This document shows positions 1,669-56,854 of a stretch of 64,000 nt of DNA, one piece after another. The translations under genes and the position numbers were made by a program. Source of the stretch: Patescibacteria group bacterium (GTDB taxonomy: Bacteria > Patescibacteriota > Microgenomatia > UBA1400 > Chisholmbacteraceae); the NCBI GenBank assembly GCA_022564195.1, contig JADFLW010000003.1, positions 12,747 to 76,746 of the forward strand, read 5' to 3'. Below the pieces are notes generated by a model. It saw only the letters and a program-made list of their open reading frames with translations, was not told where the DNA came from and made no database searches. Every line of letters starts with the position of its first letter. Position 1 is the stretch's first letter.

Positions 1669-2795
1669 GAATCGCAATCGACGTGACCGGAAGCATCTAC
1701 AAAGGCACCGGTGTGGCAACATACTACACCAGTCTTATTCCGAAACTGCTCGAGATCGGTGGTGATCACGAATTCATATTGTTTGGATACTCCCTGCGAC
1801 GCTTCGGCGATCTTACTCTTGCACAACGCAAGTTCCTTTTTCCGCCTAGACTTGCAGAGCTCGTTTGGAACAAACTGCATGTCTTCCCGATAGAAAAGCT
1901 GATTGGCAAATGCGACATTCTCCACGCATGGGACTACATCCAGCCACCGACAGAGAAGGCAAAGCTGGTAACGACCATTCACGACCTCACACCACTGAAA
2001 TTCCCAAAACATCAGCATCCAAGGACGCTCTCCGCATACAAGTCGGGGTTGCATTGGGTAGAAAAGCAAGCCGCAGCGGTCATTGCTGATTCCTACTCCA
2101 CGAAGGAAGACATCGTAAATCTTCTCAAGATTCCCGAGAAAAAGGTTCATGTCGTTTATCTTGCGGCACCCCAAGAGTTTCACGCATTTAGAGGTCAACA
2201 TGAGAATACACAAGACGTGAGCGTAGATCAGGTGAAAAGAAAATACGGGATTGAAGGCGAGTACATCTTGTCCGTTGGGACGCAGGAACCACGCAAGAAT
2301 CTTAATCGCACGATCAAAGCCTATGAGGCGCTGAAGATGGACAAATCACTGGCTATCGTGGGTCAGTTTGGATGGGGAAAAAAGATTAGACCCGTGAAGG
2401 GCGTAAAGATCTTAGGATTCGTTCCAACTGAGGACTTGCCGGCGCTCTACGCAGGGGCCTCGTGTTTTGTCTATCCCTCGTTGTATGAAGGCTTTGGTTT
2501 ACCGGTATTGGAGGCGATGGCCGTCGGCTGTCCGGTTGTGACCTCCGATCGGGGGAGCTTAAGAGAAATAGCGGGCGAAGCCGCAGTTGAGGTGAACCCT
2601 GAATCCATAGAAGCCATTGCCTTCGGTATCAGGGTGGCGCTGGAGAGGGGAGAAGAGTTGAGGGAGAAAGGCATAGCCCAGGCCCAGAAGTACACATGGG
2701 AAGCCACTGCCAGGAAAACGCTGGAAGTCTATGAGAAAATAGGCCGCAGAAAAGTTGAAAGGAAGATAAGAAAAAACGGTAATGAAAAAAGCTGA
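1665..2795 (+). CDS. Glycosyltransferase family 4 (GT-B)
   Basis: 376 aa. C-terminal PSLYEGFGLPVLEAMAVGCPVVTSDRGSLREI is the GT4 E-x7-E region. The start overlaps the upstream stop (ATGA). Confidence 0.85.
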   Translation: MRIAIDVTGSIYKGTGVATYYTSLIPKLLEIGGDHEFILFGYSLRRFGDLTLAQRKFLFPPRLAELVWNKLHVFPIEKLIGKCDILHAWDYIQPPTEKAKLVTTIHDLTPLKFPKHQHPRTLSAYKSGLHWVEKQAAAVIADSYSTKEDIVNLLKIPEKKVHVVYLAAPQEFHAFRGQHENTQDVSVDQVKRKYGIEGEYILSVGTQEPRKNLNRTIKAYEALKMDKSLAIVGQFGWGKKIRPVKGVKILGFVPTEDLPALYAGASCFVYPSLYEGFGLPVLEAMAVGCPVVTSDRGSLREIAGEAAVEVNPESIEAIAFGIRVALERGEELREKGIAQAQKYTWEATARKTLEVYEKIGRRKVERKIRKNGNEKS

Positions 2796-3098
2796 AACCA
2801 AACAACTCGAAGATATCCTCTATGTTGCCCAACTTGCCGCGATGGAAGCAGGCGATTATGCCCTGGAACATTTTATGAGGGTGCATGTCTTAAAAGAAAA
2901 ACCGATGTCAATAGATGAGGTGACCTCATGGCACGTCGCTTCGATCACCCAGCCGGAGCGCTTTTCATCAAGGAAGTAGGAGGGAAAGTTTCAGATACAG
3001 AAGGAAGACCCATCGATTGGAGAGAAACGAAACCGGTCCACATCGTTGCCAGTAACGGCACAATTCACAAGCGATTTTTACAAGTTCTCAAGGAGTAG
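2782..3098 (+). pseudogene. Inositol-monophosphatase-family (SuhB-like) gene remnant; N- and C-terminal pieces in different frames, core missing
   Basis: The 2782-2979 frame starts like an IMPase N-terminus (LEDILYVAQLAAMEAGDYALEHF). A second frame (ATG 2928 to stop 3096-3098) reads MARRFDHPAGALFIKEVGGKVSDTEGRPIDW...VASNGTIHKRFLQVLKE, the WD..AG..L..EAGG..TD / ASNG C-terminal signature. About 150 aa of metal-binding core between them is absent. Confidence 0.5.
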
Positions 3099-3291: not shown

Positions 3292-4272
3292 TCATCCGAG
3301 AAGAATCTGTGGAGGCTTCAAAGGCAATCTTCGGAATTCTTTTTTCACCAGCAGAGAAAAAGTAGCCAAAATGGCGAGCGGCCAAGCGATCCAATACTCG
3401 GCAACTGGCTGAATCGGGGGTGTTGCGAACCAGGTCCGCCATTTTCCTAAGAAAAGAATCCTCCATATCTCAAACCAGGGATATTCCGGTAAGTACGATC
3501 GATAAAGCCTGGCGATCTTGATATGAAGCGACAAAAAATCCAAAGGAGAGTGAAAAAGAAAAAAGACTGCATAGGAAAGAAGATAGACAGAGAAACTCGA
3601 AGCCGCTACCGAAAAGAGTGCATGTCGCAACTGAGGCACGCGTTTAAGTACCAAGACCACAAGGACAAAAGCCAGAAGCAGCAATCCAGTGAACACAACT
3701 TTAGTTGCCATTGCCAACCCCACGGCAGCGCCAAGAAGCAAGAGGCGTTTTCTTGAGAAGCGTGACCGAGTAAGTAAGGAAAGAGCAAGAAGCACGAACA
3801 CAAGCTGAGGAAGATCCAGATTTACGCTCGTGCTTCGCTCAAGAAACAGTGGATCGAAGACCAAAACAAGTGAGGGAAGAAGATTCAATGGAGTTGAGAC
3901 TGCAACGCGCCGAGCAAGAAGATAAGTGAGGAATACAACCACAAGACTTGCCACAAACTGCACAATCAGAATGTTGCCGAAGGCCAAGATCGAAACTCCA
4001 AAAAGGTATTTGACTAATGGAGGATCTTCGAAGTTAACGACAGAGGGATCTTTTCCGCGAATGTACTCTAAAGCCGCGAATGTCCGAAGGTCTTCGTCGC
4101 TCATGTTGCCGAAGAACTCGTATCCTTGCCCCAAGTTGTATTGTGAATGCAGCCAGATTTGGCGAAGCCGCTCATTGTCGGTGATTTGCATAGGGACATT
4201 TGAGAACGAAAAGACAAGCTTCACGGCAATGACCAATGTAAGAACAAGAGTTGCGACATGCGCTTTTTTCAT
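3292..4272 (-). CDS. Membrane glycosyltransferase, GT-C/PMT_2-like (short form)
   Basis: The ORF track gives 359 aa from 4371. I prefer ATG 4272 (MKKAHVATLVL...) because the extension runs into the divergent gene at 4341. The loop DEDLRTFAALEYIRGKDPSVVNFEDPPLVKYLFG resembles the DE...PPL loop of PMT_2 enzymes. Multiple TM spans. Confidence 0.55.
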   Translation of the reverse strand: MKKAHVATLVLTLVIAVKLVFSFSNVPMQITDNERLRQIWLHSQYNLGQGYEFFGNMSDEDLRTFAALEYIRGKDPSVVNFEDPPLVKYLFGVSILAFGNILIVQFVASLVVVFLTYLLARRVAVSTPLNLLPSLVLVFDPLFLERSTSVNLDLPQLVFVLLALSLLTRSRFSRKRLLLLGAAVGLAMATKVVFTGLLLLAFVLVVLVLKRVPQLRHALFSVAASSFSVYLLSYAVFFLFHSPLDFLSLHIKIARLYRSYLPEYPWFEIWRILFLGKWRTWFATPPIQPVAEYWIAWPLAILATFSLLVKKEFRRLPLKPPQILLG

Positions 4273-4324
4273 CGGCAAGATAGAGTATACACAAGCCCCA
4301 CAATATCCCTGCCACACTCCGTGG

Positions 4325-4333
4325 TGATATACT
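4325..4333 (+). promoter_or_regulatory. Extended -10 (TGaTATACT) 7 nt upstream of ATG 4341; possible leaderless mRNA
   Basis: TG-n-TATACT read directly. The gap to the start codon is 7 nt and there is no SD. Confidence 0.4.
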
Positions 4334-4340
4334 TTAAAGG

Positions 4341-5453
4341 ATGCATCTTGGAATAGACGGCAACGAGGCAAACATCAAACGTCGAGTTGGAAGCAATATC
4401 TACGCCTACGAGCTGCTTTCGTGGTTTCAAAAGTTGGACAAAAAGAGCAATTTCACCATCTATTTGAAGTCACAACCTCTAGATGATCTGCCTAAACCTC
4501 AAGAGAATTGGCAGTACCGTGTTATAAAACCCACTACACTCTGGACGCGCTGGCGATTGCCGCTGGATCTTTACTTGCATCGACCAAAACCCAATGTCTT
4601 TTTCACACCCGGACATTATGCTCCAAAATTCTGCCCAGCACCATTTGCGATTGCTATTATGGATCTCTCTTTCATCCATTTTCCAGAAATGTTTCGTAAG
4701 CAAGACCTCTATAAACTCACCAACTGGTCACGTGATTCAATCCTCCGTGCCGATCACATTTTCACGATCTCGAATTTTAGCAAGGATGATATAATCAAGA
4801 ACTATTCTGTTCCAGAGGAGAAAGTAACGGTAACCTACCCGGGGTTCGATCAAGAAAGATTCGGTAGGAGGATAAGCCCTCAAGAGATCGAGAGGATAAA
4901 AAAAAGGTACAATATCGTTGGGGATTACCTACTCTATGTTGGTACACTACAACCCAGGAAGAACTTGACAAGATTAATCCGAGCCTTCGCTCAGATAAAA
5001 GGTACACATCACAGTCTCGTCATCGCTGGAAAGAAAGGTTGGCTCTATTCGAAAATCCTTGATGAAGGAAAACAACTCGGGGTAGAAGACAGGGTGCGCT
5101 TTATCGGATACGTCACTAACAAGGATGCGCCGGCACTCATGAGTGGCGCAGAAGCTCTGGTCTTGGTGAGCCTCTATGAAGGATTCGGTATTCCGGTTCT
5201 AGAAGCCATGGCACTAGGAATCCCGACGGTCATCTCAGGCACCTCAAGCTTGCCAGAGATAGCAGGGGAAGTAGGAATAATGGTAGATCCCAAAGATGTG
5301 AAAAGCATAACCAGAGGTCTTGATCAGGCAATTCAATTAAATGAATTCCAGAGAAAAGAGAACGCCGTGAAAAGTAAAGTACAAGCAAAGAAGTTTACTT
5401 GGAAGCAAGCAGCCGAGAAAACACTGGAGGTGCTCTATGAGCTCGCCGTTTAA
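4341..5453 (+). CDS. Glycosyltransferase family 4
   Basis: 370 aa with VSLYEGFGIPVLEAMALGIPTVISGTSSLPEI. Confidence 0.85.
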   Translation: MHLGIDGNEANIKRRVGSNIYAYELLSWFQKLDKKSNFTIYLKSQPLDDLPKPQENWQYRVIKPTTLWTRWRLPLDLYLHRPKPNVFFTPGHYAPKFCPAPFAIAIMDLSFIHFPEMFRKQDLYKLTNWSRDSILRADHIFTISNFSKDDIIKNYSVPEEKVTVTYPGFDQERFGRRISPQEIERIKKRYNIVGDYLLYVGTLQPRKNLTRLIRAFAQIKGTHHSLVIAGKKGWLYSKILDEGKQLGVEDRVRFIGYVTNKDAPALMSGAEALVLVSLYEGFGIPVLEAMALGIPTVISGTSSLPEIAGEVGIMVDPKDVKSITRGLDQAIQLNEFQRKENAVKSKVQAKKFTWKQAAEKTLEVLYELAV

Positions 5454-6042
5454 AGATAGAATGGGGAACCAATTGACTTGGAAGGAGGCAATCCCGAAAA
5501 TTGGATTTCGTTTCCAAAGTTACTATCTTGAATTCTTGACAGCACTTCTTTGGTGGTTGGGCTTCCTGCCATCTCACACGGTAAGAAAACTCCTTTTGAA
5601 AGCCGCTGGCATGAAAATCGGGAAGAAATCCTATATCCATATTGGCTTGAGGACTTATGACCCGAGAAATATCACGATTGGTGAGGGGACTATCGTTGGC
5701 GATTACGCTACCCTAGATGGAAGGGACATGTTAGAAATTGGGAATCATGTTGATATTGCATCAGGAGTCATGATCTTCAATGGAAGCCGCGATATCCACA
5801 CAGAAGACTTTACGCTCGTTTTAAAACCAGTCAAGATCGGAAATTATGTATTCATTGGACCAAGAGCAATTATTCTCCCGGGCGTGACAGTCGGGGATGG
5901 TGCAGTCATCGGGGCTGGAGCGGTAGTAACAAAAGATGTCTCGCCAAAAACATTAGTAGGCGGTGTCCCCGCCAAAAAGATTCGAGATCGAGACGTGAAG
6001 GAATTGAAATACCGCTTGGGAAGGGCCAGACTATTTTTCTGA
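5437..6042 (+). CDS. Left-handed beta-helix (hexapeptide-repeat) acetyltransferase with N-terminal TM segment
   Basis: Hexapeptide-like repeats IGEGTIVGDYATLDG and IGPRAIILPGVTVGDGAVIGAGAVV, as in the WbbJ/LacA/CysE class. Confidence 0.8.
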   Translation: MSSPFKDRMGNQLTWKEAIPKIGFRFQSYYLEFLTALLWWLGFLPSHTVRKLLLKAAGMKIGKKSYIHIGLRTYDPRNITIGEGTIVGDYATLDGRDMLEIGNHVDIASGVMIFNGSRDIHTEDFTLVLKPVKIGNYVFIGPRAIILPGVTVGDGAVIGAGAVVTKDVSPKTLVGGVPAKKIRDRDVKELKYRLGRARLFF

Positions 6043-6117
6043 TATGAACCGATATCCATAGCCGTATTCTTATTCCTCTTCAAACTTGATGCCACCTACG
6101 GAGCGTAAGTTTTAGCC

Positions 6118-7005
6118 ATGCAACTTACCATAATTATCGTAAGCTTCAACACCAAGGATCTCCTTAGAAAGGCAGTGAAGTCAATACCCACAAAGCCCGA
6201 TTGGGAAGTGATCGTCGTTGACAACGCCTCAACCGATGGATCCGTTGAGATGCTCAAAGAGGAATTTCCTGGTGTAAAGCTCATCACAAACAGCGAAAAT
6301 CTAGGATTTGCCAAAGCAAACAACCAGGGGATCAAAACGTCCTCTGGGAAATTTGTTCTACTGCTGAACTCAGATACCCAAGTGAAAAAGGATGCATTAG
6401 AGCAGCTGGTTGAGTTTATGCAAAAAAATCCGCAAGTTGGCATCGCAAGCGGGCAACTGTTAAATCCCGACGGATCCATACAACCGCAAGGAGGTTATCT
6501 CCCACACCTTTCCAATATAGCCTTCTGGATGCTGTTTATCGATGACATCCCCGCGATTGGTAAGTATCTTTGGCCATATCACATCACCGATCGTAAAAAA
6601 TTCACAACAGAGCGCCGAATTGGGTGGGTCGGGGGAACAGCAATGATGATAAAAAGGGTAGTCTTGGAAAAAGTTGGGCTACTTGACGAGGAAATTTTCA
6701 TGTACGCCGAAGATGTTGAGTTCTGTTTAAGAGCGCAGGAAGCAGGTTTCCTCGTTGCGATCTCCCCTTTGTCAAAAATCATCCACTACGGGCAGCAAAG
6801 CAGTGGCGGAGCTCCTTCTGCTGCGTGGCTGGGGGAGTACAAGGGGATAAAATACATTTTCAAAAAACACAAACCTAGCTGGGAATATCCCATCGTGAGA
6901 TTGTTGTTGAAACTCGGAGCACTACTGAGGATGGGCATCTTTGGTATACTTCAAGGCAGAAAGGACGCGTATGAAGCGTATAAAAAAGCTCTTCAGTTGG
7001 CTTGA
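6118..7005 (+). CDS. Glycosyltransferase family 2 (GT-A)
   Basis: LTIIIVSFNTKDLL...VVDNASTDGS...LLLNSDT signature. Confidence 0.85.
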   Translation: MQLTIIIVSFNTKDLLRKAVKSIPTKPDWEVIVVDNASTDGSVEMLKEEFPGVKLITNSENLGFAKANNQGIKTSSGKFVLLLNSDTQVKKDALEQLVEFMQKNPQVGIASGQLLNPDGSIQPQGGYLPHLSNIAFWMLFIDDIPAIGKYLWPYHITDRKKFTTERRIGWVGGTAMMIKRVVLEKVGLLDEEIFMYAEDVEFCLRAQEAGFLVAISPLSKIIHYGQQSSGGAPSAAWLGEYKGIKYIFKKHKPSWEYPIVRLLLKLGALLRMGIFGILQGRKDAYEAYKKALQLA

Positions 7006-8569: not shown

Positions 8570-10014
8570 ATACAGAAATTGTCCAAAATAAAAAAGAGTA
8601 TTTCTTAATCTCAATAATATTGGTTTTTGCCGTAATAACAAGACTTTATAGAATAAATTCCCCGCTCGCTGACTGGCACTCATGGAGGCAAGCCGATACT
8701 TCAGCGGTAACAAGAAGATTCGTAAATGAAGGCATAGACGTACTTCATCCACGCTATGACGATCTCTCAAATATCCCTTCTGGTAGGGACAATCCGAATG
8801 GATGGCGATTTGTCGAGTTTCCGTTTGTCAATGCCGGGACAGCTGTGCTGTACAAAGCACTTCCGGTAATTTCTCTCGAAGTTTGGGGCAGACTGCACTC
8901 AATTATGTTCTCGCTTGGGGCCGTCGTGCTGATCTTTCTTATTGTCAGAGACTTGGTAAGCGCACGCATTGGCTTGTTTGCAAGCGCGGTGTTTGCCCTT
9001 TTACCCTTTAACATCTACTTCCACCGGACAATCTTACCGGAAGTACCAATGGTGTTCTTTTCGCTTGCAGCTGTGTACTTTTTTCATCGTTGGTTGGAAA
9101 CCAAAAAATCCCGTGATTTCGCCCTTTCTGTCGCAGCTTCTGCCTTAGGGGTGCTGCTCAAACCATACGTGCTGTTTTTAGGATTGCCGATGCTGTATCT
9201 CACATACAGAAAGTGGGGAAGAGCAGCAGCAAAACAAAAATCGCTCTATCTTTACCTAGTACTTACGTTGATGCCTTTTGTGCTTTGGCGTCTTTGGGCA
9301 GCAAGATTCCCGGAAGGAATTCCCGCCTATACATGGCTGTTGAATGGAACGGGGATACGATTCAGACCCGCTTTTTTTCGCTGGATTTTTGCCGAACGAT
9401 TCGGAAAGCTCATTTTAGGATACTGGGGGCTGATTCCTTTCGGCATCGGTCTCATTCGCAAGCCTCGAGAAAAATGGGGCTGGTTTTTCCATTGGTGGCT
9501 GGTCGCAATGCTCCTCTATCTCGTGGTCTTTGCAACGGGCAACGTCACCCACGATTACTACCAAATCTTCATCACCCCGATCATCGCAATCTTCGTCGCC
9601 CTCGGCATAGACGGTTTACTCAGGATGCCCCGGAAAGTGTTCAGCCGTGGGCTCACGCTTGCACTGCTCCTCGTTTCTCTGGGATTCGGGCTCGGATTCT
9701 CATGGTTTCACATCCGTGATTTTTTTAACATCAATCACCCAGAAATTGTTTCCGCAGGCGAAGCAGCCAATAAAATACTTCCCGAGAACGCAATAGTGAT
9801 AGCACCCTATCAAGGAGATACCGCATTCTTATACCAGATCAATAGACCTGGCTGGCCAATCGGAGGTGATATAAAAAGGAAAATTGAGCTCGGGGCAACC
9901 GACTACGTCACCGTGAATTTCGACGAAGAGGCGAATTTTCTTTTGGAGCGTTGTAAGCCTGCACTACAACTCGAGCAGTTTGCCATCGTAAGTCTTCTAC
10001 ACTGCTCGCTATGA
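8566..10014 (+). CDS. Polytopic membrane glycosyltransferase, GT-C fold (ArnT/PMT family)
   Basis: ATG 8566 overlaps the upstream stop (ATGA). N-terminal RLYRINSPLADWHSWRQADTSAVTRRF and at least 9 TM spans. Confidence 0.65.
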   Translation: MNTEIVQNKKEYFLISIILVFAVITRLYRINSPLADWHSWRQADTSAVTRRFVNEGIDVLHPRYDDLSNIPSGRDNPNGWRFVEFPFVNAGTAVLYKALPVISLEVWGRLHSIMFSLGAVVLIFLIVRDLVSARIGLFASAVFALLPFNIYFHRTILPEVPMVFFSLAAVYFFHRWLETKKSRDFALSVAASALGVLLKPYVLFLGLPMLYLTYRKWGRAAAKQKSLYLYLVLTLMPFVLWRLWAARFPEGIPAYTWLLNGTGIRFRPAFFRWIFAERFGKLILGYWGLIPFGIGLIRKPREKWGWFFHWWLVAMLLYLVVFATGNVTHDYYQIFITPIIAIFVALGIDGLLRMPRKVFSRGLTLALLLVSLGFGLGFSWFHIRDFFNINHPEIVSAGEAANKILPENAIVIAPYQGDTAFLYQINRPGWPIGGDIKRKIELGATDYVTVNFDEEANFLLERCKPALQLEQFAIVSLLHCSL

Positions 10015-32474: not shown

Positions 32475-32525
32475 TAAAGGGGAAGGGAGGTGGTTGGGAA
32501 GCAAAAATAGCAAAGAAGCGTGTGG

Positions 32526-32720
32526 TCCCGATAGCGCTGGCGCTTATCGGGAATACGAGGAAGGGGGATCCCCCGACATCACGTCGGGGGGATCGGACTC
32601 CCGGTGTAAAATACCGGGGAGAATCTGCGGAGACCCCCTGGTTGTTCGGCCAACCACAACGGACGGATCAAAACCTCGCAGTAATGTGGGAGACAGAGTC
32701 CAACCGAAGCCGAAAGGGTT
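32526..32720 (+). ncRNA. Candidate glmS-ribozyme-like structured 5' leader
   Basis: Lies in the 349-nt gap directly upstream of glmS. GC-rich nested helices include tcccgat 32526-32532 / atcggga 32546-52. Strings AGCGC (32533), ACGAGGA (32555) and CGGACUCCCGG (32594) recall the glmS ribozyme core. P1 would be nearly absent, so the call is uncertain. Confidence 0.4.
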
Positions 32721-32823: not shown

Positions 32824-34605
32824 ATGTGTGGAATTTTCGGATACGTAGGTCACCAAGAAGACGCAGCCGACATCGTCTTTGAGGGCTTAAAAAGATTGGA
32901 ATACCGCGGATACGACTCTTGGGGAATTGCGGTCAAAAAGCCAGGAACGGGCAGCAAAAATACCTTTGCGATCAGGAAAAGAACGGGAAAGATCGGAAAC
33001 GCCAAGGTCAGTGACCTCCCCAAAAGCAGCTTTGGTTTAGGACACACGAGGTGGGCAACCCATGGTGGGGTAACCAAAATTAATGCCCACCCACATACCG
33101 ACTGCACAGGTTCCATTGTCTTGATCCACAACGGCATAATCGAGAATTACGAAAAGTTGAAAAAGAACCTTATAGCCCACGGCCACCGTTTTGTGTCCGA
33201 AACAGATAGCGAAGTTGCGGTCCATTTGATTGAAGAGCTCAACAAAACCTGCTCATTCACAGAGGCAGTTCGCAAAGCTTTTCTTAAGTTGGAGGGCTTA
33301 AACGCCATAATCGTCATGCATCCGCGAGCGCACACATTTGTTGGGGTCCGGAACGGATCGCCACTTGTCGTTGGTTTGGGAAAGGGAGGAAACTACCTTG
33401 CCTCAGATGCTGCCGCTCTCCTGCCTCACACCAAGAAGGTGTACTTTTTAGAAGATAACGATTTGGTGGTAGCAGACGCAGAGAATGTCCAAATCATCGA
33501 GGTGAAAACGGGGAAGAGAAAGAAGATCAAGCCGCGTACGCTTACCTGGAGCATAAAGCAAGCTGAAAAAGGGAAGTACCCCCATTTCATGATCAAAGAA
33601 ATTCATGAACAGCCGTCCATACTCTCTGAGATTGCTTCGAGTGGTCTCTCTAATGCCAAAAAGCTCAGCAAACATATCGATCAGGCCTTCGACACCTACA
33701 TGGTGGGCTGCGGAACCGCTTCATATGCCTGTATTGCAGGTTCCTACCTTTTTTCCAAAATCGCCAATCGTCATATCAACTGGGCTGTTGGAAGCGAATT
33801 CGGATATCAGCTAGACTTTTTAACCCCAAAAAGCCTGGTTATGGCACTCTCTCAATCTGGCGAAACAATAGATACACTTGAAGCGGTGAAGAAAGCGAAA
33901 GGGAAAGGCGCAAAGATTTTTGCACTTGTCAATACACTTGGGTCGTCTCTGTATCGTGAAGCCGACTATTCAATGCTCATTGGTGCAGGACCAGAGAAAG
34001 CCGTCGCCTCCACAAAAGCCTTCACTGGAAAGCTTGCCCATCTGGTGCTTCTTGCATACGCTCTGGCCGGCAAACCAAAGAGTGGTCAATCGACACTCTT
34101 GAAAGCCGCAAAGGCAAGCAAGACAGTCCTCACTCCTGAATCTAGGGCGAGGATAAAAAAACTCGCGGAGAGGATGAAAAACAAAGAGCACATCTATGTT
34201 ATTGGAAGAGGCTTATCGTACCCCGCGTCGCTAGAAACCGCATTAAAAATCAAAGAGATCTCCTACATCCATGCCGAAGGATTCGCGGCTGGAGAATTGA
34301 AGCACGGCGTGATCGCGCTTGTCGAGAAAGGTACCCCTTGCATTGCCTTTTTACCTAACGATGAAACGTATGGTGCCAATCTCGCTGGCGCGATGGAAAT
34401 GAAGGCCCGTGGCGGCTCCATCATCGGGATTTCCCACAAGCCGCACGAGGTCTTTGATTTCTATATTCCAGTGGCAGATGCTCAAGAAGCCACGATCATT
34501 CCCAATGTCATCGTCGGTCAAGTCTTAGCCTATTATCTCGCGATCGCGCGCGACCTCGACCCCGACATGCCCCGCAACCTCGCTAAATCCGTAACGGTGA
34601 AGTAA
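32824..34605 (+). CDS. glmS: Glutamine--fructose-6-phosphate aminotransferase
   Basis: MCGIFGYVG N-terminal nucleophile, two SIS domains, C-terminal AKSVTVK. Confidence 0.95.
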   Translation: MCGIFGYVGHQEDAADIVFEGLKRLEYRGYDSWGIAVKKPGTGSKNTFAIRKRTGKIGNAKVSDLPKSSFGLGHTRWATHGGVTKINAHPHTDCTGSIVLIHNGIIENYEKLKKNLIAHGHRFVSETDSEVAVHLIEELNKTCSFTEAVRKAFLKLEGLNAIIVMHPRAHTFVGVRNGSPLVVGLGKGGNYLASDAAALLPHTKKVYFLEDNDLVVADAENVQIIEVKTGKRKKIKPRTLTWSIKQAEKGKYPHFMIKEIHEQPSILSEIASSGLSNAKKLSKHIDQAFDTYMVGCGTASYACIAGSYLFSKIANRHINWAVGSEFGYQLDFLTPKSLVMALSQSGETIDTLEAVKKAKGKGAKIFALVNTLGSSLYREADYSMLIGAGPEKAVASTKAFTGKLAHLVLLAYALAGKPKSGQSTLLKAAKASKTVLTPESRARIKKLAERMKNKEHIYVIGRGLSYPASLETALKIKEISYIHAEGFAAGELKHGVIALVEKGTPCIAFLPNDETYGANLAGAMEMKARGGSIIGISHKPHEVFDFYIPVADAQEATIIPNVIVGQVLAYYLAIARDLDPDMPRNLAKSVTVK

Positions 34606-51485: not shown

Positions 51486-51496
51486 ACGAGATGGTT

Positions 51497-51572
51497 GGGC
51501 TCATAGCTCAATCGGCAGAGTGCTTCGTTCACATCGAAGAGGTTCCAGGTTCGAGTCCTGGTGAGCCCACCA
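51497..51572 (+). tRNA. tRNA-Val (anticodon CAC), CCA encoded
   Basis: 76-nt cloverleaf by eye. Acceptor GGGCUCA/UGAGCCC, D-stem GCUC/GAGU, anticodon stem CUUCG/CGAAG with loop UUCACAU, T-arm CCAGG-UUCGAGU-CCUGG, discriminator A, then CCA. Confidence 0.9.
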
Positions 51573-51574
51573 AT

Positions 51575-51910
51575 ATGAAAATCGTCTCTCTCGAGAAACT
51601 CAAAGATGAACCGCTGACTCACAGTCCTAAGATCAAGAAACGGGTTTTGCTAAAAAAAGGAGAGGTTCCTCATCTGACAAGTTTCTCACAAGCCACTTTC
51701 AAGCCTGGACAAATCGCCAGCGAACACGTCCATGAGGATATGTACGAAGTCTATTTAGTTCAAGGTGGAACGGGCCTGATCAAAGTCGATGGAAAAGTAC
51801 ACCAACTCAAAAAAGGCGACTGCGTGATGACTGAGCCAGGAGAGAACCACGAATTCATCAACACCGGCTCCGAGGACTTAGTCCTCACCTACTTCGGAAT
51901 ACAAAAGTAA
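51575..51910 (+). CDS. Cupin-domain protein
   Basis: Two cupin motifs: GQIASEHVHEDMYEVYLVQG and GDCVMTEPGENHEFIN. ATG 51575 is used because the track start 51491 overlaps the tRNA. Confidence 0.8.
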   Translation: MKIVSLEKLKDEPLTHSPKIKKRVLLKKGEVPHLTSFSQATFKPGQIASEHVHEDMYEVYLVQGGTGLIKVDGKVHQLKKGDCVMTEPGENHEFINTGSEDLVLTYFGIQK

Positions 51911-52001
51911 AGGAAATTCTTCTTAGGGAAAAAAGAAACCAAATAAGAACGCGTGTATGTAGGGATTGAAGAGAAAGAGAAAGCCAAACCCCAAAAAGGG
52001 G

Positions 52002-52032
52002 AGGTGAGATAGGCTCAGAGCCCACCTCACCT
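52002..52032 (-). terminator. Candidate intrinsic terminator of the island operon
   Basis: Minus strand: AGGUGAG-17 nt-CUCACCU followed by CCCCUUUUUGGGGUUUGG, about 170 nt after the stop of the last gene. Confidence 0.4.
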
Positions 52033-52199
52033 GTTCTCTCGCCGCCTCACAAGGCCATTGTAGGCCCAGAGTCCCAGGCCTCCCGCACATAGTGGGAAGA
52101 CGGAGGAAAATGACGAGATTGCTCAACACCTCTCGCACTTCAGTAAGCTCATGGATGCGATCCGACCGATAGCTAAGCGGCCGTGTGATCACGAGCGCG

Positions 52200-53639
52200 T
52201 CAGCTCTCCGCAACAGCTGCTGGGCGAGCAGGAGCCGGACGTCCGAGCCCGAGCTCCTCGGCGTAGTAGGTGATCGGTTTATCCCTCGTCTCCCTGATGA
52301 GGTCCTTTTGGGCGAACACCCACCGATTGGTAGCCTCATTGCCATTCCAGTAGACAGCTTTCACCCGCTTGATTTCGTCATACTGATCACTGGTGGTAAG
52401 GTTTTTAAGCTTCCGGCACTTCGACCTACCCACATTGATCTTCGGATGGTCAGCTAAAGGGTTGTCGGTGAACAACCACAAGAGAGTCGAGAGCGAAAGC
52501 ATCTTCTCCCGAGCAAAGTAGGCTTCGGTGGTCTGCTCCCCTCCTTGCTCATAGAGAACGTCGACGATGAGTGTCAGGCTTCGTTCCTTGCCGTCTCCGT
52601 TCGGCCGCGAGTCCCTGTACTGGCCTTTGATCGCCAGAAGCTCTGTGCCAAAGGCGATTGATTGGACGGAAATGGCTCCCGGAATCCAAGGCTGGCCTTC
52701 GGTTTTGAAGTCGCCTTCCGTTCTGAAGACCGGGCTGCGGGAATGGCCCTGGACGACCTTCGTCCCCGAGGTCTTGATCGCGATCACGCGTTTCCCGGAA
52801 GCCGTCAGCCGCCGAGCGCGCTTGATGAAAAACTCTCCCATCTGCACCCAGGCGAACATCGGGGTGACCCCTTCTGGCGCAGCATAGAGCTCCACTCGAG
52901 GATCTTCCAGATGGCCCATGAACAGCATATCATCGCTGAGGTCCGTGTAGTCCTCTTCCCGCTCTCCGGCGATGCAGGCCATGAGATGAAAGTCTGAGTA
53001 CTGATCCTCCTCCATCATCAACATCGCTGCCCTAAAAATCGCCCGTAGATTCATGGTCTTGCCAACTCCACCTGGACCGGCAATCCATAGACCGTGGCCT
53101 TCGCCGAGCGGCCATCCGCCACGGAAAATGATCCCGAGGACAGGTTCGTACTCTTCGTCCCAGGAAACCCGGCGATCGAAGTAGTCGAGTGGAAGAGGTT
53201 TGTTGGGATAGCGGCCGAAGATCTTGTTCTGATCCTCCTCGTCCGGCTTCGCAACCAAAGTGGGCCAATTTCGGACCACCGCAGCGTCCGTTTCCCCGTT
53301 GACGGAAATGATCTGAGTGATAGGGTCCGGAGGAACCTCTTCCTCGTTGTCGGATCTGCTGCTCGATCTGTCAGGCGGCTCCCGATAGAGGATAAGATCC
53401 CCTTCCCGTAATCCCCACAGCTCCACAGTAGGGGAAGGAATGAATCGGCCCCTTGCAAGGGACTCAGCAAAAATCTCACTCCTGGGGAATTTCGCCAACT
53501 TCTTGGCGTTTGGCGGGATGACCACCGTATCTGGAGTTCCCCATTTGCCGTATACAGGTCTCTGGCTCTGAGGGAGCTCCGAGAGGGGTCGTTGTAGTAC
53601 CAACCCACGCTTCGGTTTATCATCTTGTGTACTCAACAC
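52200..53639 (-). CDS. Divergent Rho-family ATPase homologue (Rho-like OB region + RecA-fold ATPase)
   Basis: By-eye collinearity with E. coli Rho:
- LREGDLILYREPP...IISVNGE vs LRTGDTISGKIRPP...KVNEVN;
- GLWIAGPGGVGKTMNL vs GLIVAPPKAGKTMLL;
- ACIAGEREEDYTDL vs LLIDERPEEVTEM;
- FIKRARRLTASGKRVIAI vs VIEKAKRLVEHKKDVIIL;
- SLTLIVDVL vs SLTIIATAL.
GTG 53639 (SD GGAAAGGAG 8 nt upstream) preferred to ATG 53699. Confidence 0.6.
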   Translation of the reverse strand: MLSTQDDKPKRGLVLQRPLSELPQSQRPVYGKWGTPDTVVIPPNAKKLAKFPRSEIFAESLARGRFIPSPTVELWGLREGDLILYREPPDRSSSRSDNEEEVPPDPITQIISVNGETDAAVVRNWPTLVAKPDEEDQNKIFGRYPNKPLPLDYFDRRVSWDEEYEPVLGIIFRGGWPLGEGHGLWIAGPGGVGKTMNLRAIFRAAMLMMEEDQYSDFHLMACIAGEREEDYTDLSDDMLFMGHLEDPRVELYAAPEGVTPMFAWVQMGEFFIKRARRLTASGKRVIAIKTSGTKVVQGHSRSPVFRTEGDFKTEGQPWIPGAISVQSIAFGTELLAIKGQYRDSRPNGDGKERSLTLIVDVLYEQGGEQTTEAYFAREKMLSLSTLLWLFTDNPLADHPKINVGRSKCRKLKNLTTSDQYDEIKRVKAVYWNGNEATNRWVFAQKDLIRETRDKPITYYAEELGLGRPAPARPAAVAES

Positions 53640-53647
53640 AAGTCTTT

Positions 53648-53679
53648 CTCCTTTCCTAGTGGGCCTCAGGCCCAACCGG
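53648..53679 (-). promoter_or_regulatory. Leader hairpin + SD motif (copy 1, before the Rho-like gene)
   Basis: RNA sense: CGGUU-GGGCC-UGA-GGCCC-ACUA-GGAAAGGAG-8 nt-GUG. Confidence 0.6.
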
Positions 53680-53720
53680 TCAGTCCGTTTTCCAGTCATT
53701 GCTGGATTGGGAACAGGCTA

Positions 53721-53750
53721 CCCTCTAGTAGTGGGCCTCTGGTCCAAAAG
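53721..53750 (-). promoter_or_regulatory. Leader hairpin motif (extra upstream copy, imperfect)
   Basis: RNA sense: UUGGACC-AGA-GGCCC-ACUACUAGAGGG, with one mismatch in the stem. Confidence 0.45.
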
Positions 53751-53996
53751 GAAATCTCTAGAGAGCATTCCGTTCCCAATCCGTACGCGTTCTTATTTGG
53801 TTGTCAAGGAGCTAATGCGAAGCATAAGCTCCGCACCCGCCAATATTTTTCGAGGGAGTATACGGCTGACTAAGCAGTAAGCCGACCATCGATAAAATAT
53901 GGTGGGAAAGTGCTATCCCGCTCAAGCGGGATCCAAATGCCCGCCCCAACAAACGCCAAATGTCTGTTTGCAGGCGTCTTATAAATTGTCAATTTT

Positions 53997-54063
53997 CCTC
54001 TGTTTCGCCCTCCGTAGCTTTAGCGTAGGGGGCTCATCAGTCAGCCTTTGGCTGAAACAGAAA
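53997..54063 (-). ncRNA. Hammerhead ribozyme motif, type III (HHR-C)
   Basis: RNA sense: UUUCUGU-U|UCAGCC-AAA-GGCUGA-CUGAUGA-GCCCCCUACGCUAAAGCUACGGAGGGC-GAAA-CAGAGG. Full catalytic core. Stems I and II are closed and stem III is open. Confidence 0.8.
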
Positions 54064-54225
54064 ACAACACAACAAAATCAAACTACAACCCCCTTCACAC
54101 AAACAAACAAACAAACAATTCATCAACCCCGCAAATGGGATTGAGATGTCTGCCGAATTTCGGTGAAGAGAGGGTGAGGGAGGGATCCCAAACTTCGGGA
54201 TCCCATTCCCATGTCAACGTCCCTC

Positions 54226-54576
54226 TTAGGACCGCCACGGTCTTCGGCCTATCCATTCGGCTGTTGGGAGGTCATTCCCGCGCCATCGTCCGTTGGATCG
54301 CAATGGATCCTCATTGACGACCTGACGTAAAAGCCCAATGGAAAGGGCGATCGCGCCGATGATGCCAACGAAAACGGCCAGGAAGCTCGAAACCAAACGC
54401 GAGAGTAGTGGAATGGACTCCACCAAATCTCGCTGAGCCGACGTTAACTCGCCGCCCGACGGAAAGCCAAATGCCGCAAACACATGAAGCGCGAATATGC
54501 CTCCCAGGAAAGGTAGGAGCAAATGAGGCCGATGAAAAGTGCTAAATGGACTCGGAAGTACCAGTCCGAAAACCAT
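54226..54576 (-). CDS. Small two-TM membrane protein (gene model uncertain)
   Basis: 116 aa. SD-like GAGGAG lies 9 nt before the ATG. Two hydrophobic spans (LLLPFLGGIFALHVFAAFGF, VSSFLAVFVGIIGAIALSIGLL). Overlaps the alternative model 54444-54677 in another frame. Confidence 0.4.
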   Translation of the reverse strand: MVFGLVLPSPFSTFHRPHLLLPFLGGIFALHVFAAFGFPSGGELTSAQRDLVESIPLLSRLVSSFLAVFVGIIGAIALSIGLLRQVVNEDPLRSNGRWRGNDLPTAEWIGRRPWRS

Positions 54577-54914: not shown

Positions 54915-56537
54915 CTAAGACGACGAATCGTTCTCATCAACCTCTCGGAGTTGAGACGGTCTGGTTCGACCGCCTGACGATTTCCCGCGACGAAGCCGTA
55001 GCGAGACGCGCCCCCGTGACACCGCGGTATCCCCCGACGCCAAAGCGCTATCGTCGACTTCGCGTAGGGTAGAGGATCTCTTCGCCGGCTGCGCAACCTC
55101 CGGTGGTTGAGCCACATCCGTGACCCGATCCACCACAGTCGGCTGCAGTTCACGATACTTCTCTTGCACGTATCGCGCCTCGATGTCGGCGATGTGCCAT
55201 CCCTGACCGAGCAACCGGGCAAACAGCCTGAGCGTAATACCAGAGCGAAGGCAGAACGCGATCGCGTCGTCCCTCTCAAGACCAGCGTCTTCGATGCGCT
55301 TACGCTTGTAGAAGGTATCGCTGTCCCACAGCGCTTCGAGCTCTGCGCGAAATTTCGCGTTGTCTTGCTTGAGCTCGTCAAGCGAGCGGGTGATCACCGG
55401 ACGGCCCGGGAGTTCATCAGAGAACTCCTCCTGAACCTCCGCAATGGTGACCCCAGGCATAGCCAGTTCTTGCCCGATCTCGAAGCCTTCAAAGCTCCAA
55501 TGATCGGGATCCTCGACTGTGGCCTCGTCAATCGTGGAGGGTTCTGCCTTGATCCGAAGCAGGGCGTCGTAATGAACCATCACTGCCTGGAAAGCCTCCT
55601 CCGCCTGCGCATCGGTCGCGCCTCCAGCAAGGGCCTCCACTCCAGCTGCATTCGCTCGACTCTCAGCTGTGCCTCGAAGCTGTAGCATGAACGCTGCGCG
55701 TCGTCGAATCTTGCCCCGAGCATTCATGAAAGCGACGGCATTCTCCCTGTAGAGAGCCAAGTCGTGTGCCCGTGGCCCGGCCCTGGAGGGGAAGCTCAAG
55801 CTCATGACATCCTCTTTCTGGAATCTGCGCTTGTTCCACCACTTCCTGAGTCGACTCGTCTTGATATCATTATCGAGCAGGTCAGGATCGGTGCGGGCCA
55901 ACACGTCTTCGATCATCGTCGTCGGCGTCGCCGAGATATACATATCCTCCCCGGCCTTGAATAGGCTGGGAATGGTGACACCGCCTTTGCGATGTCGCAT
56001 CTCATCAGTGTAGATGAGATACCTGTCTTGGCGTTGCTGCCAGCGAAGGACGTGGTACGTAAGCGTCGGCGTGAGGAACGCAAGCACAGGCCACGCCCAA
56101 AACGCCATCCCCCATTCGGGGGCCGATGGGTCGATCAACTTGAAATCGGGGACGTCTGGCGAAACCGTGATCGCCGCTACAAATGCGCCCAACGCCAAAT
56201 TGATGAACGACACCGTGACAGCCAGGAGAAACGGCCCAAAGATGCTAAAACCGAAGGCGAAGGGAGACCATTTGAGAAACTCCGGCCAAACGTACGCCTT
56301 CTTGCTCATTTCCAGCACCTTTTCAAGCCTAACTCCTGCCTCGAGTTCGCGCGTCCGCTTCTTCTCACTCACGAGGAAGAAAAAGTCGAAGACACGCTGG
56401 ATCACCTTCTCCCCGAAAGGGAAGATCATCAGTGTTGCAGAGAAGATGATCCAGACGCAAACCACGATGATGGCAAGGCCAACATACGCGGCTGCATCCG
56501 ACGGAAGTACCTCTGAAAGGAACTCTTCGAACGTCAC
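54915..56537 (-). CDS. Membrane protein with about 4 N-terminal TM spans and a large soluble C-terminal domain; function unknown
   Basis: 540 aa. GTG start 8 nt after SD GAAGGAG. No nucleotide-binding motif seen. Confidence 0.6.
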   Translation of the reverse strand: MTFEEFLSEVLPSDAAAYVGLAIIVVCVWIIFSATLMIFPFGEKVIQRVFDFFFLVSEKKRTRELEAGVRLEKVLEMSKKAYVWPEFLKWSPFAFGFSIFGPFLLAVTVSFINLALGAFVAAITVSPDVPDFKLIDPSAPEWGMAFWAWPVLAFLTPTLTYHVLRWQQRQDRYLIYTDEMRHRKGGVTIPSLFKAGEDMYISATPTTMIEDVLARTDPDLLDNDIKTSRLRKWWNKRRFQKEDVMSLSFPSRAGPRAHDLALYRENAVAFMNARGKIRRRAAFMLQLRGTAESRANAAGVEALAGGATDAQAEEAFQAVMVHYDALLRIKAEPSTIDEATVEDPDHWSFEGFEIGQELAMPGVTIAEVQEEFSDELPGRPVITRSLDELKQDNAKFRAELEALWDSDTFYKRKRIEDAGLERDDAIAFCLRSGITLRLFARLLGQGWHIADIEARYVQEKYRELQPTVVDRVTDVAQPPEVAQPAKRSSTLREVDDSALASGDTAVSRGRVSLRLRRGKSSGGRTRPSQLREVDENDSSS

Positions 56538-56545
56538 ATCTCACA

Positions 56546-56575
56546 CTCCTTCGTAGTGGGACTCTGTCCCAACCG
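56546..56575 (-). promoter_or_regulatory. Leader hairpin + SD motif (copy 3)
   Basis: RNA sense: CGGUU-GGGAC-AGA-GUCCC-ACUACGAAGGAG-8 nt-GUG. Confidence 0.6.
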
Positions 56576-56782
56576 AATGAACCATACGCGTCGTTGCGCG
56601 TGGGCTCGAAAATGAACCCGACGGAGTCGGGGCCACATTAGAGCCCACTGCCTGACACGCAGGCACTCTCTACGAATGATCAATTCCCATCTTTCCTTTC
56701 TATAATCTTGTTGTGTTGTCAAAGTGCGTATCCCTCGCCCGTATACCACGCTCGCATTGAGCAGGTTTGAGTTTGGAATGTA

Positions 56783-56854
56783 TTCTGTTTCGTCCCTCCA
56801 TAGCTTATTAGCGACGGGGGACTCATCAGGTCCGACGTATATCGGACGACAGAA
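56783..56854 (-). ncRNA. Hammerhead ribozyme motif, type III (HHR-B)
   Basis: RNA sense: UUCUGU-C|GUCCG-AUAUACGU-CGGAC-CUGAUGA-GUCCCCCGUCGCUAAUAAGCUAUGGAGGGAC-GAAA-CAGAA. Classical GUC cleavage triplet. Confidence 0.85.

Follow-up and report, generated by a model that had tools for sequence, protein, structure and literature searches.

We analysed a 64,000-nucleotide (nt) stretch of contig JADFLW010000003.1 from a Patescibacteria group bacterium (assembly GCA_022564195.1), hereafter the window, and found on its minus strand, between a peptidoglycan hydrolase gene and the gene for a 540-amino-acid (aa) protein, a complete type III hammerhead, HHR-B, which on sequence and modelled folding is very probably a genuine self-cutting RNA. 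We consider it likely that HHR-B is a functional ribozyme, transcribed in the sense orientation as one segment of the long polycistronic message of a largely ORFan, integrated island. This reading is carried by the motif itself, its non-random occurrence, covariation in its stems, the orientation of the surrounding genes and the predicted folding of the nascent RNA; from these we infer cleavage in vivo and the fate of the products.

Read on the minus strand, HHR-B runs UUCUGUC/GUCCG-AUAUACGU-CGGAC-CUGAUGA-GUCCCCCGUCGCUAAUAAGCUAUGGAGGGAC-GAAA-CAGAA, with the slash at the predicted cut (Table 1). The catalytic residues C3 U4 G5 A6 N7 G8 A9 and G12 A13 A14 are all present, in CUGAUGA and in GAA (56791-56789, followed by A15.1), in keeping with the complete core claimed by an earlier, sequence-only reading of this DNA. 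The NUH rule is obeyed, as A56788 and U56849 form the A15.1-U16.1 pair and H17 is C56848, which confirms the GUC triplet claimed before, and standard hammerhead numbering places scission between 56848 and 56847, again as predicted. Perreault et al. (2011, PMC3088659) accepted hammerheads that had no mispair at N10.1-N11.1, N1.1-N2.1 or A15.1-U16.1; the pairs at these positions in HHR-B (G56822-C56792, G56847-C56830 and A56788-U56849) are all Watson-Crick. Stem III has the six Watson-Crick pairs first assigned to it, A15.1-U16.1 included, and stem I differs at 1 of 18 nt from that of a sister copy, HHR-A, as had been noticed. The compensatory change described for stem II is also there, the second pair being U-A in HHR-B and C-G in both HHR-A and a third copy, HHR-C (A-U in one relative), and the bulged or mismatched A attributed to all three is a bulged A56797 common to HHR-B and HHR-C and a C.A mismatch at the matching place in HHR-A. 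The flanking genes had been correctly described too, with the M23 peptidase gene upstream and a protein with N-terminal hydrophobic segments encoded downstream. Folding of the isolated 72-nt RNA returned the hammerhead three-way junction as centroid, in which loops cap stems I and II and stem III is the open one (minimum free energy (MFE) −30.4 kcal/mol, z = −4.9, 0/200 shuffles as good).

Occurrence in the window was non-random. We wrote a strict detector that accepted only sequences with the core and GAAA in place, with stems I (as a hairpin), II and III no shorter than 4, 3 and 4 bp, with U16.1 in stem III, and with any base but G as H17. It found three motifs in the window, whereas 300 dinucleotide-shuffled windows yielded 3 between them (0.01 each) and 1000 shuffled versions of the island yielded 0. 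The pattern CTGATGAG-N(8-38)-CGAAAC occurred twice against 0.04 expected. All three hammerheads are intergenic and co-oriented with their flanking genes. The gap around HHR-B is also crossed by a mechanically listed 154-aa open reading frame (ORF; 56998..56534), for which one gene caller predicts a 150-aa product. A chance motif or a coding region nevertheless has practically no likelihood as an explanation, given the three motifs found where 0.01 were expected; the ORF is omitted in the gene call of another assembly (L278), the equivalent gaps of relatives are shorter and hold no such ORF, and covarying RNA helices fall within the same stretch.

Covariation was assessed in two alignments. In the first, of 8 distinct hammerheads, paired cells made up 93.9% and 11 of 15 pairs had changed on both sides (0/500 shuffles; slid registers 27-47%), four non-family sequences having come through a detector that requires paired stems. 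Among the six ribozymes of the element family, two of which (the A-site copies of L284 and L285) were found with our own family model R1 itself, 92.2% of cells were paired and covariation was 0.364 vs. 0.174 (0/500 shuffles; slid registers 34-52%). Both alignments were fitted to the model and therefore lean to structure, yet the effect size is still far outside the controls. The 10.2-11.2 pair is C-G, U-A, A-U or G-C depending on the hammerhead. R1 scored HHR-B at 82.4 bits, with HHR-B itself in the seed, and gave 44.9, 48.9 and 47.6 bits to the non-seed sequences in L223, L285 and L284, and 27-33 bits to three other hammerheads outside the seed. Chance is excluded for HHR-B, and all three of its stems are supported by covariation.

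A collection-wide search with a DNA pattern of stem I plus core matched at least 270 loci and was too unspecific for that purpose; among the matches listed were four complete hammerheads, none related to the element. An unrelated metagenome contig (L223:3197..3141, minus strand) carries a compact type III hammerhead with a stem I nearly identical to that of HHR-B (GUCCGAUGUACGUCGGAC). Directly after it come a sigma-70-like promoter, with TTGACT and TAATAC 16 nt apart, and a 129-aa ORF; the leader motif described below is absent there.

The three hammerheads of the island are separated by 4.2 kb (HHR-A to HHR-B) and 2.8 kb (HHR-B to HHR-C). HHR-B shares 17/18 nt of stem I with HHR-A and 24/31 nt of stem II with HHR-C, whose stem I is different (UCAGCC AAA GGCUGA) and whose stem II resembles that of HHR-B, and the A and B intergenic modules are 78-86% identical over ~250 nt. 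The 766-aa NTPase encoded between HHR-A and HHR-B has one close relative (46% identity, contig L001), and an exhaustive search of 1.84 billion representative sequences returned 56 remote ones; we compared the contexts in L001, L283, L284, L285/286/287 and L288. The gene order small transmembrane (TM) protein, NTPase, M23 hydrolase is kept in the five contexts fetched, and a hammerhead in the A position, immediately ahead of the NTPase leader, occurs in four lineages (the window, L001, L284 and L285), of which L001 stands at 46% NTPase identity and L284 and L285 were detectable by profile search only. Retention of the A-position hammerhead in four diverged lineages shows selection for a ribozyme in this operon architecture. 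On this sequence comparison HHR-A is read as the ancestral copy and HHR-B apparently as a lineage-specific extra copy, chimeric or recombinant, with core and pairs all intact. A hammerhead in the HHR-C position is absent in the relatives L281 and L285. The A-site copy in L284 (L284:2780-2861) has a core-adjacent A.A mismatch; its activity may be reduced or lost, or it may represent an unusual natural form.

Each junction follows one layout, in which stable hairpins after the stop codon are followed by a UG-rich tract, the hammerhead if present, a spacer of ~65-100 nt, the conserved motif GCACYUUGACAACACAACAAGA and a leader. After the stop codon of the M23 gene the hairpins form a Y-shaped structure with no U-tract after it, which could, as modelled, be a candidate for 3'-end protection of the upstream cleavage product. 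In the leader consensus, helix P1 encloses hairpin P2 and then UCAUUUU, P3 has the loop CAAYGA, and P4 lies just before the ribosome-binding site. A sequence-only MAFFT alignment of 7 leader copies gave 96.9% paired cells in three helices, with 12 of 19 pairs changed on both sides (0/500 shuffles). With a model built for the leader (R2) we recovered 21 full-length copies from the window and the whole set of relatives. Of these, 18 differ in sequence, each of the 21 runs up to a start codon, and those outside the seed scored 47-71 bits. The 18 distinct copies were 96.9% paired, 14 of 18 pairs had changed on both sides, and covariation was 0.755 vs. 0.212 (0/500 shuffles; slid registers 25-46%). 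Rfam has no match at the leader coordinates. From its sequence, the ~135-nt leader is a candidate new class of cis-regulatory RNA that precedes many genes of the element family, and it is probably the more novel object of the region than HHR-B.

Further features were seen around the same junctions. Paralogous, terminator-like hairpins (UCAAUCCCAnUnGCGGGGUUG, 61157..61136 and 54144..54123, minus strand), each followed by a U/G-rich run, lie ~55-60 nt upstream of HHR-A and HHR-C, with equivalents in L001 and L281, while HHR-B has instead a GC hairpin without a U-tract. At the start of the 540-aa gene, AUGUGA (56539..56534) forms a minimal AUG-UGA start-stop that overlaps the annotated GUG, and the L001 orthologue has the same arrangement (L001:13900-13905). 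The TTGACA that follows the ribozymes was considered as a sigma-70 −35 box and rejected, as no −10 element stands at 16-18 nt and L001 has TTTAAC or TTTAAA.

In the mechanism that we propose, the three-way junction would fold once RNA polymerase passes 56783, and the 2'-OH of C56848 would attack the neighbouring phosphate and cut the chain between 56848 and 56847. The upstream product, the message for the NTPase and the M23 hydrolase, would end in ...UUCUGUC with a 2',3'-cyclic phosphate, ~40 nt beyond the very stable Y-shaped structure, whose anatomy suggests a possible block to 3' exonucleases. The downstream product would begin with a 5'-OH guanosine already paired in stem I and would comprise the ribozyme body, the spacer, the ~135-nt leader and the 540-aa gene. 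One transcript would in this way give separate gene-block messages, which may differ in stability and translation, and HHR-A and HHR-C would do likewise at the two neighbouring junctions. The same ends could instead be religated, 5'-OH to 2',3'-cyclic phosphate, turning the A-B and B-C segments into circular or spliced RNAs of a retrozyme- or viroid-like kind. We regard this as very improbable: the hammerheads share a strand and a core-proximal stem III (YUGU/ACAG) that makes hybrid stems of 5-6 bp possible, joining the 3' end of a segment to the ribozyme body at its own 5' end, and Perreault et al. (PMC3088659) raised the possibility, but those authors' search for spliced and circular products of comparable clusters in bacteria was negative, the common ACAG/CUGU is mostly the general hammerhead consensus, and in relatives with a single hammerhead a circle cannot be defined.

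Several observations weigh against a functional HHR-B, the folding of the full intergenic RNA (discussed below) among them. At Rfam gathering thresholds no hammerhead is reported in the window, only a tRNA and a glmS ribozyme. Covariance-model scoring, which the sequence-only reading had put forward as a check, favoured HHR-B with our own model R1, whose seed included it, but not with RF00008, which in a permissive scan gave it 15.2 bits (E = 2.3; gathering score 48.5), wrongly using an internal GUC and mis-registering stem I; HHR-C (37.3 bits, E = 3.9e-5) and HHR-A (20.5 bits) also fell below that score. The sub-threshold scores are attributable to long insertions in stems I and II, and we treat the shortfall as a limit of sensitivity, the threshold being that of a database rather than a biochemical criterion of the class. 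Inspection of stems and loops I and II of HHR-B revealed no convincing loop-loop complementarity, which bears on the rate of cleavage at cellular Mg2+; a stem II tip, GCUAA(UA)AGC, recurs in HHR-B, HHR-C and the L284 A-site copy, and no partner for it was identified. The hairpins upstream of HHR-A and HHR-C, if efficient terminators, would leave little read-through RNA at those two sites. A filters-off search and direct reading of the gaps found no hammerhead in the HHR-B position in L001, L283 or L285, so that HHR-B is dispensable for the operon, and its sequence is identical in the three metagenome copies, which gives no signal of selection specific to it.

These last facts also fit a recent neutral or decaying duplicate, produced by recombination among paralogous intergenic modules and, whether or not it cleaves, without a role of its own: HHR-B is confined to this lineage, it looks chimeric in the identities of its stems and of the A and B modules, and the samples hold no HHR-B sequence variation that might reveal constraint. 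We nevertheless find this account improbable: HHR-B has no damaged core position or core-adjacent pair, and its three stems have all been kept whole even where stem II departs from the two putative parents, by paired changes such as U-A vs. C-G; what a relaxed copy looks like is exemplified by the L284 A-site hammerhead, with its A.A mismatch at 10.1-11.1.

Folding of HHR-B depended on how much downstream RNA was present. In nascent RNAs ending up to ~80 nt past the ribozyme, the pairing probability (p) of stem III was about 0.7-0.82 and those of stems I and II were ~1.0, and stem I stayed at ~1.0 in every context tested. In the thermodynamic ensemble of the full intergenic RNA, stem III fell to p = 0.10 and a long-range helix reached 0.87. 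That helix joins the UG tract (56866-56856) to its exact complement in the leader motif (56717-56707), 11 bp that can be extended if the UGUC next to the tract, where U16.1 and C17 lie, pairs with GACA (56721-56718); the duplex has −17.2 kcal/mol (z = −4.5, 0/1000 shuffles as good). These modelled results point to a co-transcriptional cleavage window for HHR-B.

Taken further, the competing helix could gate the ribozyme kinetically, with brief co-transcriptional cutting, after which pairing by leader motif 56721-56705 would trap the remaining uncut RNA in an inactive state; transcription speed or leader-binding factors would then decide what share of the message is cut. This account, which overlaps with that of a functional ribozyme, draws on the HHR-B duplex and its effect on stem III, on a similar fall in HHR-A (stem III p from 0.98 in nascent to 0.12 in full-length RNA), on downstream pairing of the cleavage-site strand in full-length RNA of the L001 and L284 A-site copies (p = 0.76 and 0.95; stem III was not predicted in these even in nascent RNA) and on a compensatory change in the L001 A-site copy, UUGUUGUGG with CCACAACAA. 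The evidence for gating consists, however, of thermodynamic predictions, and HHR-C and the L285 A-site copy show no competition (stem III p = 0.92 and 0.99). Once base composition is controlled, the duplex loses significance at the A and C sites (z = −1.1, +0.5 and +0.7) and keeps it only at two B-site modules, HHR-B and L001-B; since L001-B has the complementarity and no ribozyme, the helix would have a role of its own. On balance we think gating unlikely. Equally tentative is a two-part RNA device, peculiar to a new family of integrated elements, in which the ribozyme sets the 5' end of the leader and the motif at the leader head, by pairing with the cleavage-site strand, limits cutting to the co-transcriptional window; if it existed, mRNA processing would be coupled to a signal or protein sensed by the leader. 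The functional, sense-transcribed hammerhead remains the reading that we prefer.

Table 1 Features of the hammerhead junctions and the island; positions are those of the window unless a contig is named.
Feature	Position	Strand	Remarks
HHR-B, complete type III hammerhead	56854..56783	minus	predicted cut 3' of C56848, between 56848 and 56847
HHR-B stem III 5' strand, UUCUGU (16.6-16.1)	56854-56849	minus	pairs with ACAGAA 56788-56783; then C17 = 56848
HHR-B stem I hairpin, GUCCG(AU)-AUAC-(GU)CGGAC	56847-56830	minus	5 Watson-Crick pairs, extendable to 7
HHR-B core, CUGAUGA (C3-A9)	56829-56823	minus	read from sequence
HHR-B extended stem II	56822-56792	minus	predicted fold: 5 pairs, bulged A 56797, 4 pairs, C/U mismatch, GCU-AAUA-AGC tip
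HHR-B GAAA (G12-A15.1) and stem III 3' strand ACAGAA	56791-56788 and 56788-56783	minus	read from sequence
HHR-A, type III hammerhead	61086..60997	minus	GUU site, 10-bp stem III; cut between 61076 and 61075
HHR-C, type III hammerhead	54064..53996	minus	GUU site; cut between 54056 and 54055
L001 A-site hammerhead	L001:9712-9768		GUA site
L284 A-site hammerhead	L284 ~2784-2853		GUC site; stem III identical to that of HHR-B; A.A mismatch at 10.1-11.1
L285 A-site hammerhead	L285 ~9647-9722		GUA site
Y-shaped structure after M23 stop codon	56945-56888	minus	outer helix GAGAUGGG/CCCAUCUU around two GC hairpins (MFE folds)
UG tract, CUUGUUGUGUU	56866-56856	minus	exact reverse complement of leader motif 56717-56707
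Leader motif 1, GACA-AACACAACAAGAU	56721-56705	minus	predicted pairing with UG tract; GACA with UGUC of cleavage-site strand
Structured leader, copy B	56665..56532	minus	model R2, 107.7 bits (copy in seed); covariation
Leader B, P1	56648-56641 with 56607-56600	minus	
Leader B, P2	56631-56626 with 56622-56617	minus	U run next
Leader B, P3	56600-56597 with 56590-56587	minus	loop CAACGA
Leader B, P4	56570-56566 with 56562-56558	minus	
Leader B ribosome-binding site, AGGAG	56550-56546	minus	GTG start at 56537
Leader copies, window	60846..60712, 56665..56532, 53797..53634	minus	
Leader copies, L277	L277:2587-2721, 6151-6285, 9764-10006		
Leader copies, L001	L001 at 4671, 6820, 9868, 13763		
Leader copies, L281, L282, L283	L281:422; L282:14; L283:34		
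Leader copies, L284	L284 at 112, 2978		
Leader copies, L285	L285 at 1155, 7033, 16077, 19455		
Leader copy, L288	L288:27		
184-aa gene		minus	at least 3 TM segments; first in order
592-aa gene		minus	~6 TM segments; after 184-aa gene
127-aa gene		minus	2 TM segments; between 592-aa gene and HHR-A
766-aa NTPase	58417..60717	minus	Walker A GKGERGKTT; after HHR-A
487-aa M23 peptidoglycan hydrolase	56944..58407	minus	PF01551 E = 7.7e-17; N-terminal hydrophobic segment; upstream of HHR-B
540-aa ORFan	54915..56537	minus	N-terminal hydrophobic segments (hydropathy); downstream of HHR-B
139-aa and 116-aa genes		minus	between 540-aa gene and HHR-C
499-aa P-loop ATPase, F1/FliI-like		minus	after HHR-C; relatives carry PF00006
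Strong 14-bp terminator	52032..52002	minus	ends island operon

The host region is an uncharacterised integrated island, of higher GC content and almost entirely composed of ORFans, which gives it a foreign look. GC content steps from ~0.49 to 0.55-0.59 at ~52000, just past a tRNA-Val and a cupin gene, and all genes from ~52000 to the end of the window are on the minus strand (Table 1). An identical element is present in three metagenome assemblies, and one of the contigs, L280, shows the same host junction (ParB, L27, L21, FtsW); its recurrence in an independent assembly indicates that the integration is real. Neither an integrase nor a phage hallmark gene turned up in ~30 kb of the element, of which one end was not reached, and prophage status is not demonstrable for the island.

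Apart from weak P-loop matches, the M23 domain was the only one identified when the island proteins were searched against Pfam, PHROGs and NCBIfam. Single-protein searches of viral contigs and GTDB genomes found no close relatives, searches of PDB sequences found nothing significant, and a profile scan of viral contigs found nothing. In phage records the NTPase had no match and the ATPase a single weak one (23% identity, E = 4e-4). The 540-aa protein has no family match and no relatives in 5.8 billion sequences, and its N-terminal hydrophobic segments make it probably membrane-anchored. AlphaFold models of the 766-aa NTPase and of the ATPase were discarded as unusable (pLDDT 31.5 and 35.8, alignments of 2-3 sequences). 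Gene order, predicted TM segments, the Walker A motif and an FtsK_SpoIIIE match (E = 0.033) make the island look somewhat like a module for conjugation or type IV secretion, which we offer as a guess.

The 766-aa protein itself represents an uncharacterised P-loop NTPase family (relatives P0002, P0006-P0059) with no significant Pfam match, always preceded by a small protein with two TM segments and followed by an M23 peptidase. This order has a possible parallel in that of VirB3, VirB4 and a hydrolase in Gram-positive conjugation modules. At the island boundary (~51500..52050), tRNA-Val(cac) occupies 51497-51572 and is overlapped on the same strand by ORF 51491..51910, for which Cupin_2 and AraC_binding Pfam matches are precomputed in L280; no tRNA att repeat was found in the DNA examined. 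Three independent assemblies break at one base, with L277 and L279 ending at window position 54269 and Ns replacing 54268..54240 in L280, and the L001 and L281 contigs also end near the equivalent of 54269; candidate causes are a physical end of the DNA, a 29-mer that is hypervariable and an alternative junction. Past the end of the window, L277 holds, within the element, a 2.8-kb direct duplication (L277:1-2842 and 3565-6406; 99.8% identical) of a gene block encoding proteins of 462, 110, 142 and 64 aa. Outside the island, a glmS ribozyme (32506..32716, plus strand; RF00234, 55.8 bits, E = 3.6e-10) precedes a 593-aa ORF (32824..34605), presumably glmS, an ordinary and known arrangement.

The presence of that ribozyme indicates that the host probably has machinery for the decay of 5'-OH RNAs. 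In the glmS system, cleavage is metabolite-dependent and the exposed 5'-OH end is degraded by RNase J1 (Collins et al. 2007, as summarised in PMC3328962). HHR-B resembles glmS in that self-cleavage in a bacterial mRNA leader puts a 5'-OH on the coding fragment, but its new 5' end would be paired at once in stem I, whereas that of glmS is, in the same summary, exposed; a 5' exonuclease would be expected to be hindered, and the outcome may be stabilisation. Against the RF00008 (Hammerhead_3) model, which covers type III hammerheads from viroids, satellite RNAs, plants and bacteria, HHR-B has the same type III topology, CUGAUGA...GAAA core, A15.1-U16.1 and G10.1-C11.1 pairs and GUC site, and differs in an 18-nt stem I and a 31-nt stem II with bulge and mismatch, far above the consensus length of the model. 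As the Rfam threshold misses all three copies, counts of long-stem ribozymes in poorly sampled mobile elements are probably too low. A contact between loops 1 and 2 comparable to that of viroid-type ribozymes was not recognised in HHR-B.

The role of bacterial hammerheads is still called an open question in reviews (PMC6155905; PMC6765202). In favour of activity in cells, cleavage in vivo is documented for the type II hammerheads of Desulfovibrio vulgaris (PMC8782182). The locus described here leaves that question unanswered and is a useful test case for it. The HHR-A position is conserved across four diverged lineages of one operon; each ribozyme has beside it a well-defined leader and a competing helix, the latter predicted, that are open to mutation; and, with HHR-B and HHR-C found in this lineage only, the relatives serve as natural controls with and without the ribozyme in an otherwise conserved scaffold.

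The closest published parallel is the set of clustered hammerheads that flank genes in bacterial prophages and integrated elements, for example in Clostridium scindens, Azorhizobium caulinodans and Agrobacterium tumefaciens. Such clusters cleaved in vitro in native transcripts of ~2 kb, with one triple arrangement cleaving in vivo once cloned, and for them a role in operon processing has already been proposed (Perreault et al. 2011, PLoS Comput Biol, PMC3088659). In both cases several intergenic hammerheads with a canonical core lie on the same strand within a few kb, flanking genes or short blocks of an acquired region, and the proposed role is the cutting of a long transcript into gene-block messages. 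The island differs from those clusters in that no integrase or phage hallmark gene was detected in it, in a gene content that suggests a membrane apparatus (polytopic protein, two-TM protein, P-loop NTPase, M23 hydrolase and F1/FliI-like ATPase), and in a conserved intergenic scaffold with a structured leader after each ribozyme, which is undescribed there. Hammerhead clusters with a proposed processing role are already known in bacteria, and HHR-B belongs to that known type; what is new relative to the published clusters is the element family, the conservation of the A site and the leader next to the ribozymes, together with its predicted competing helix.

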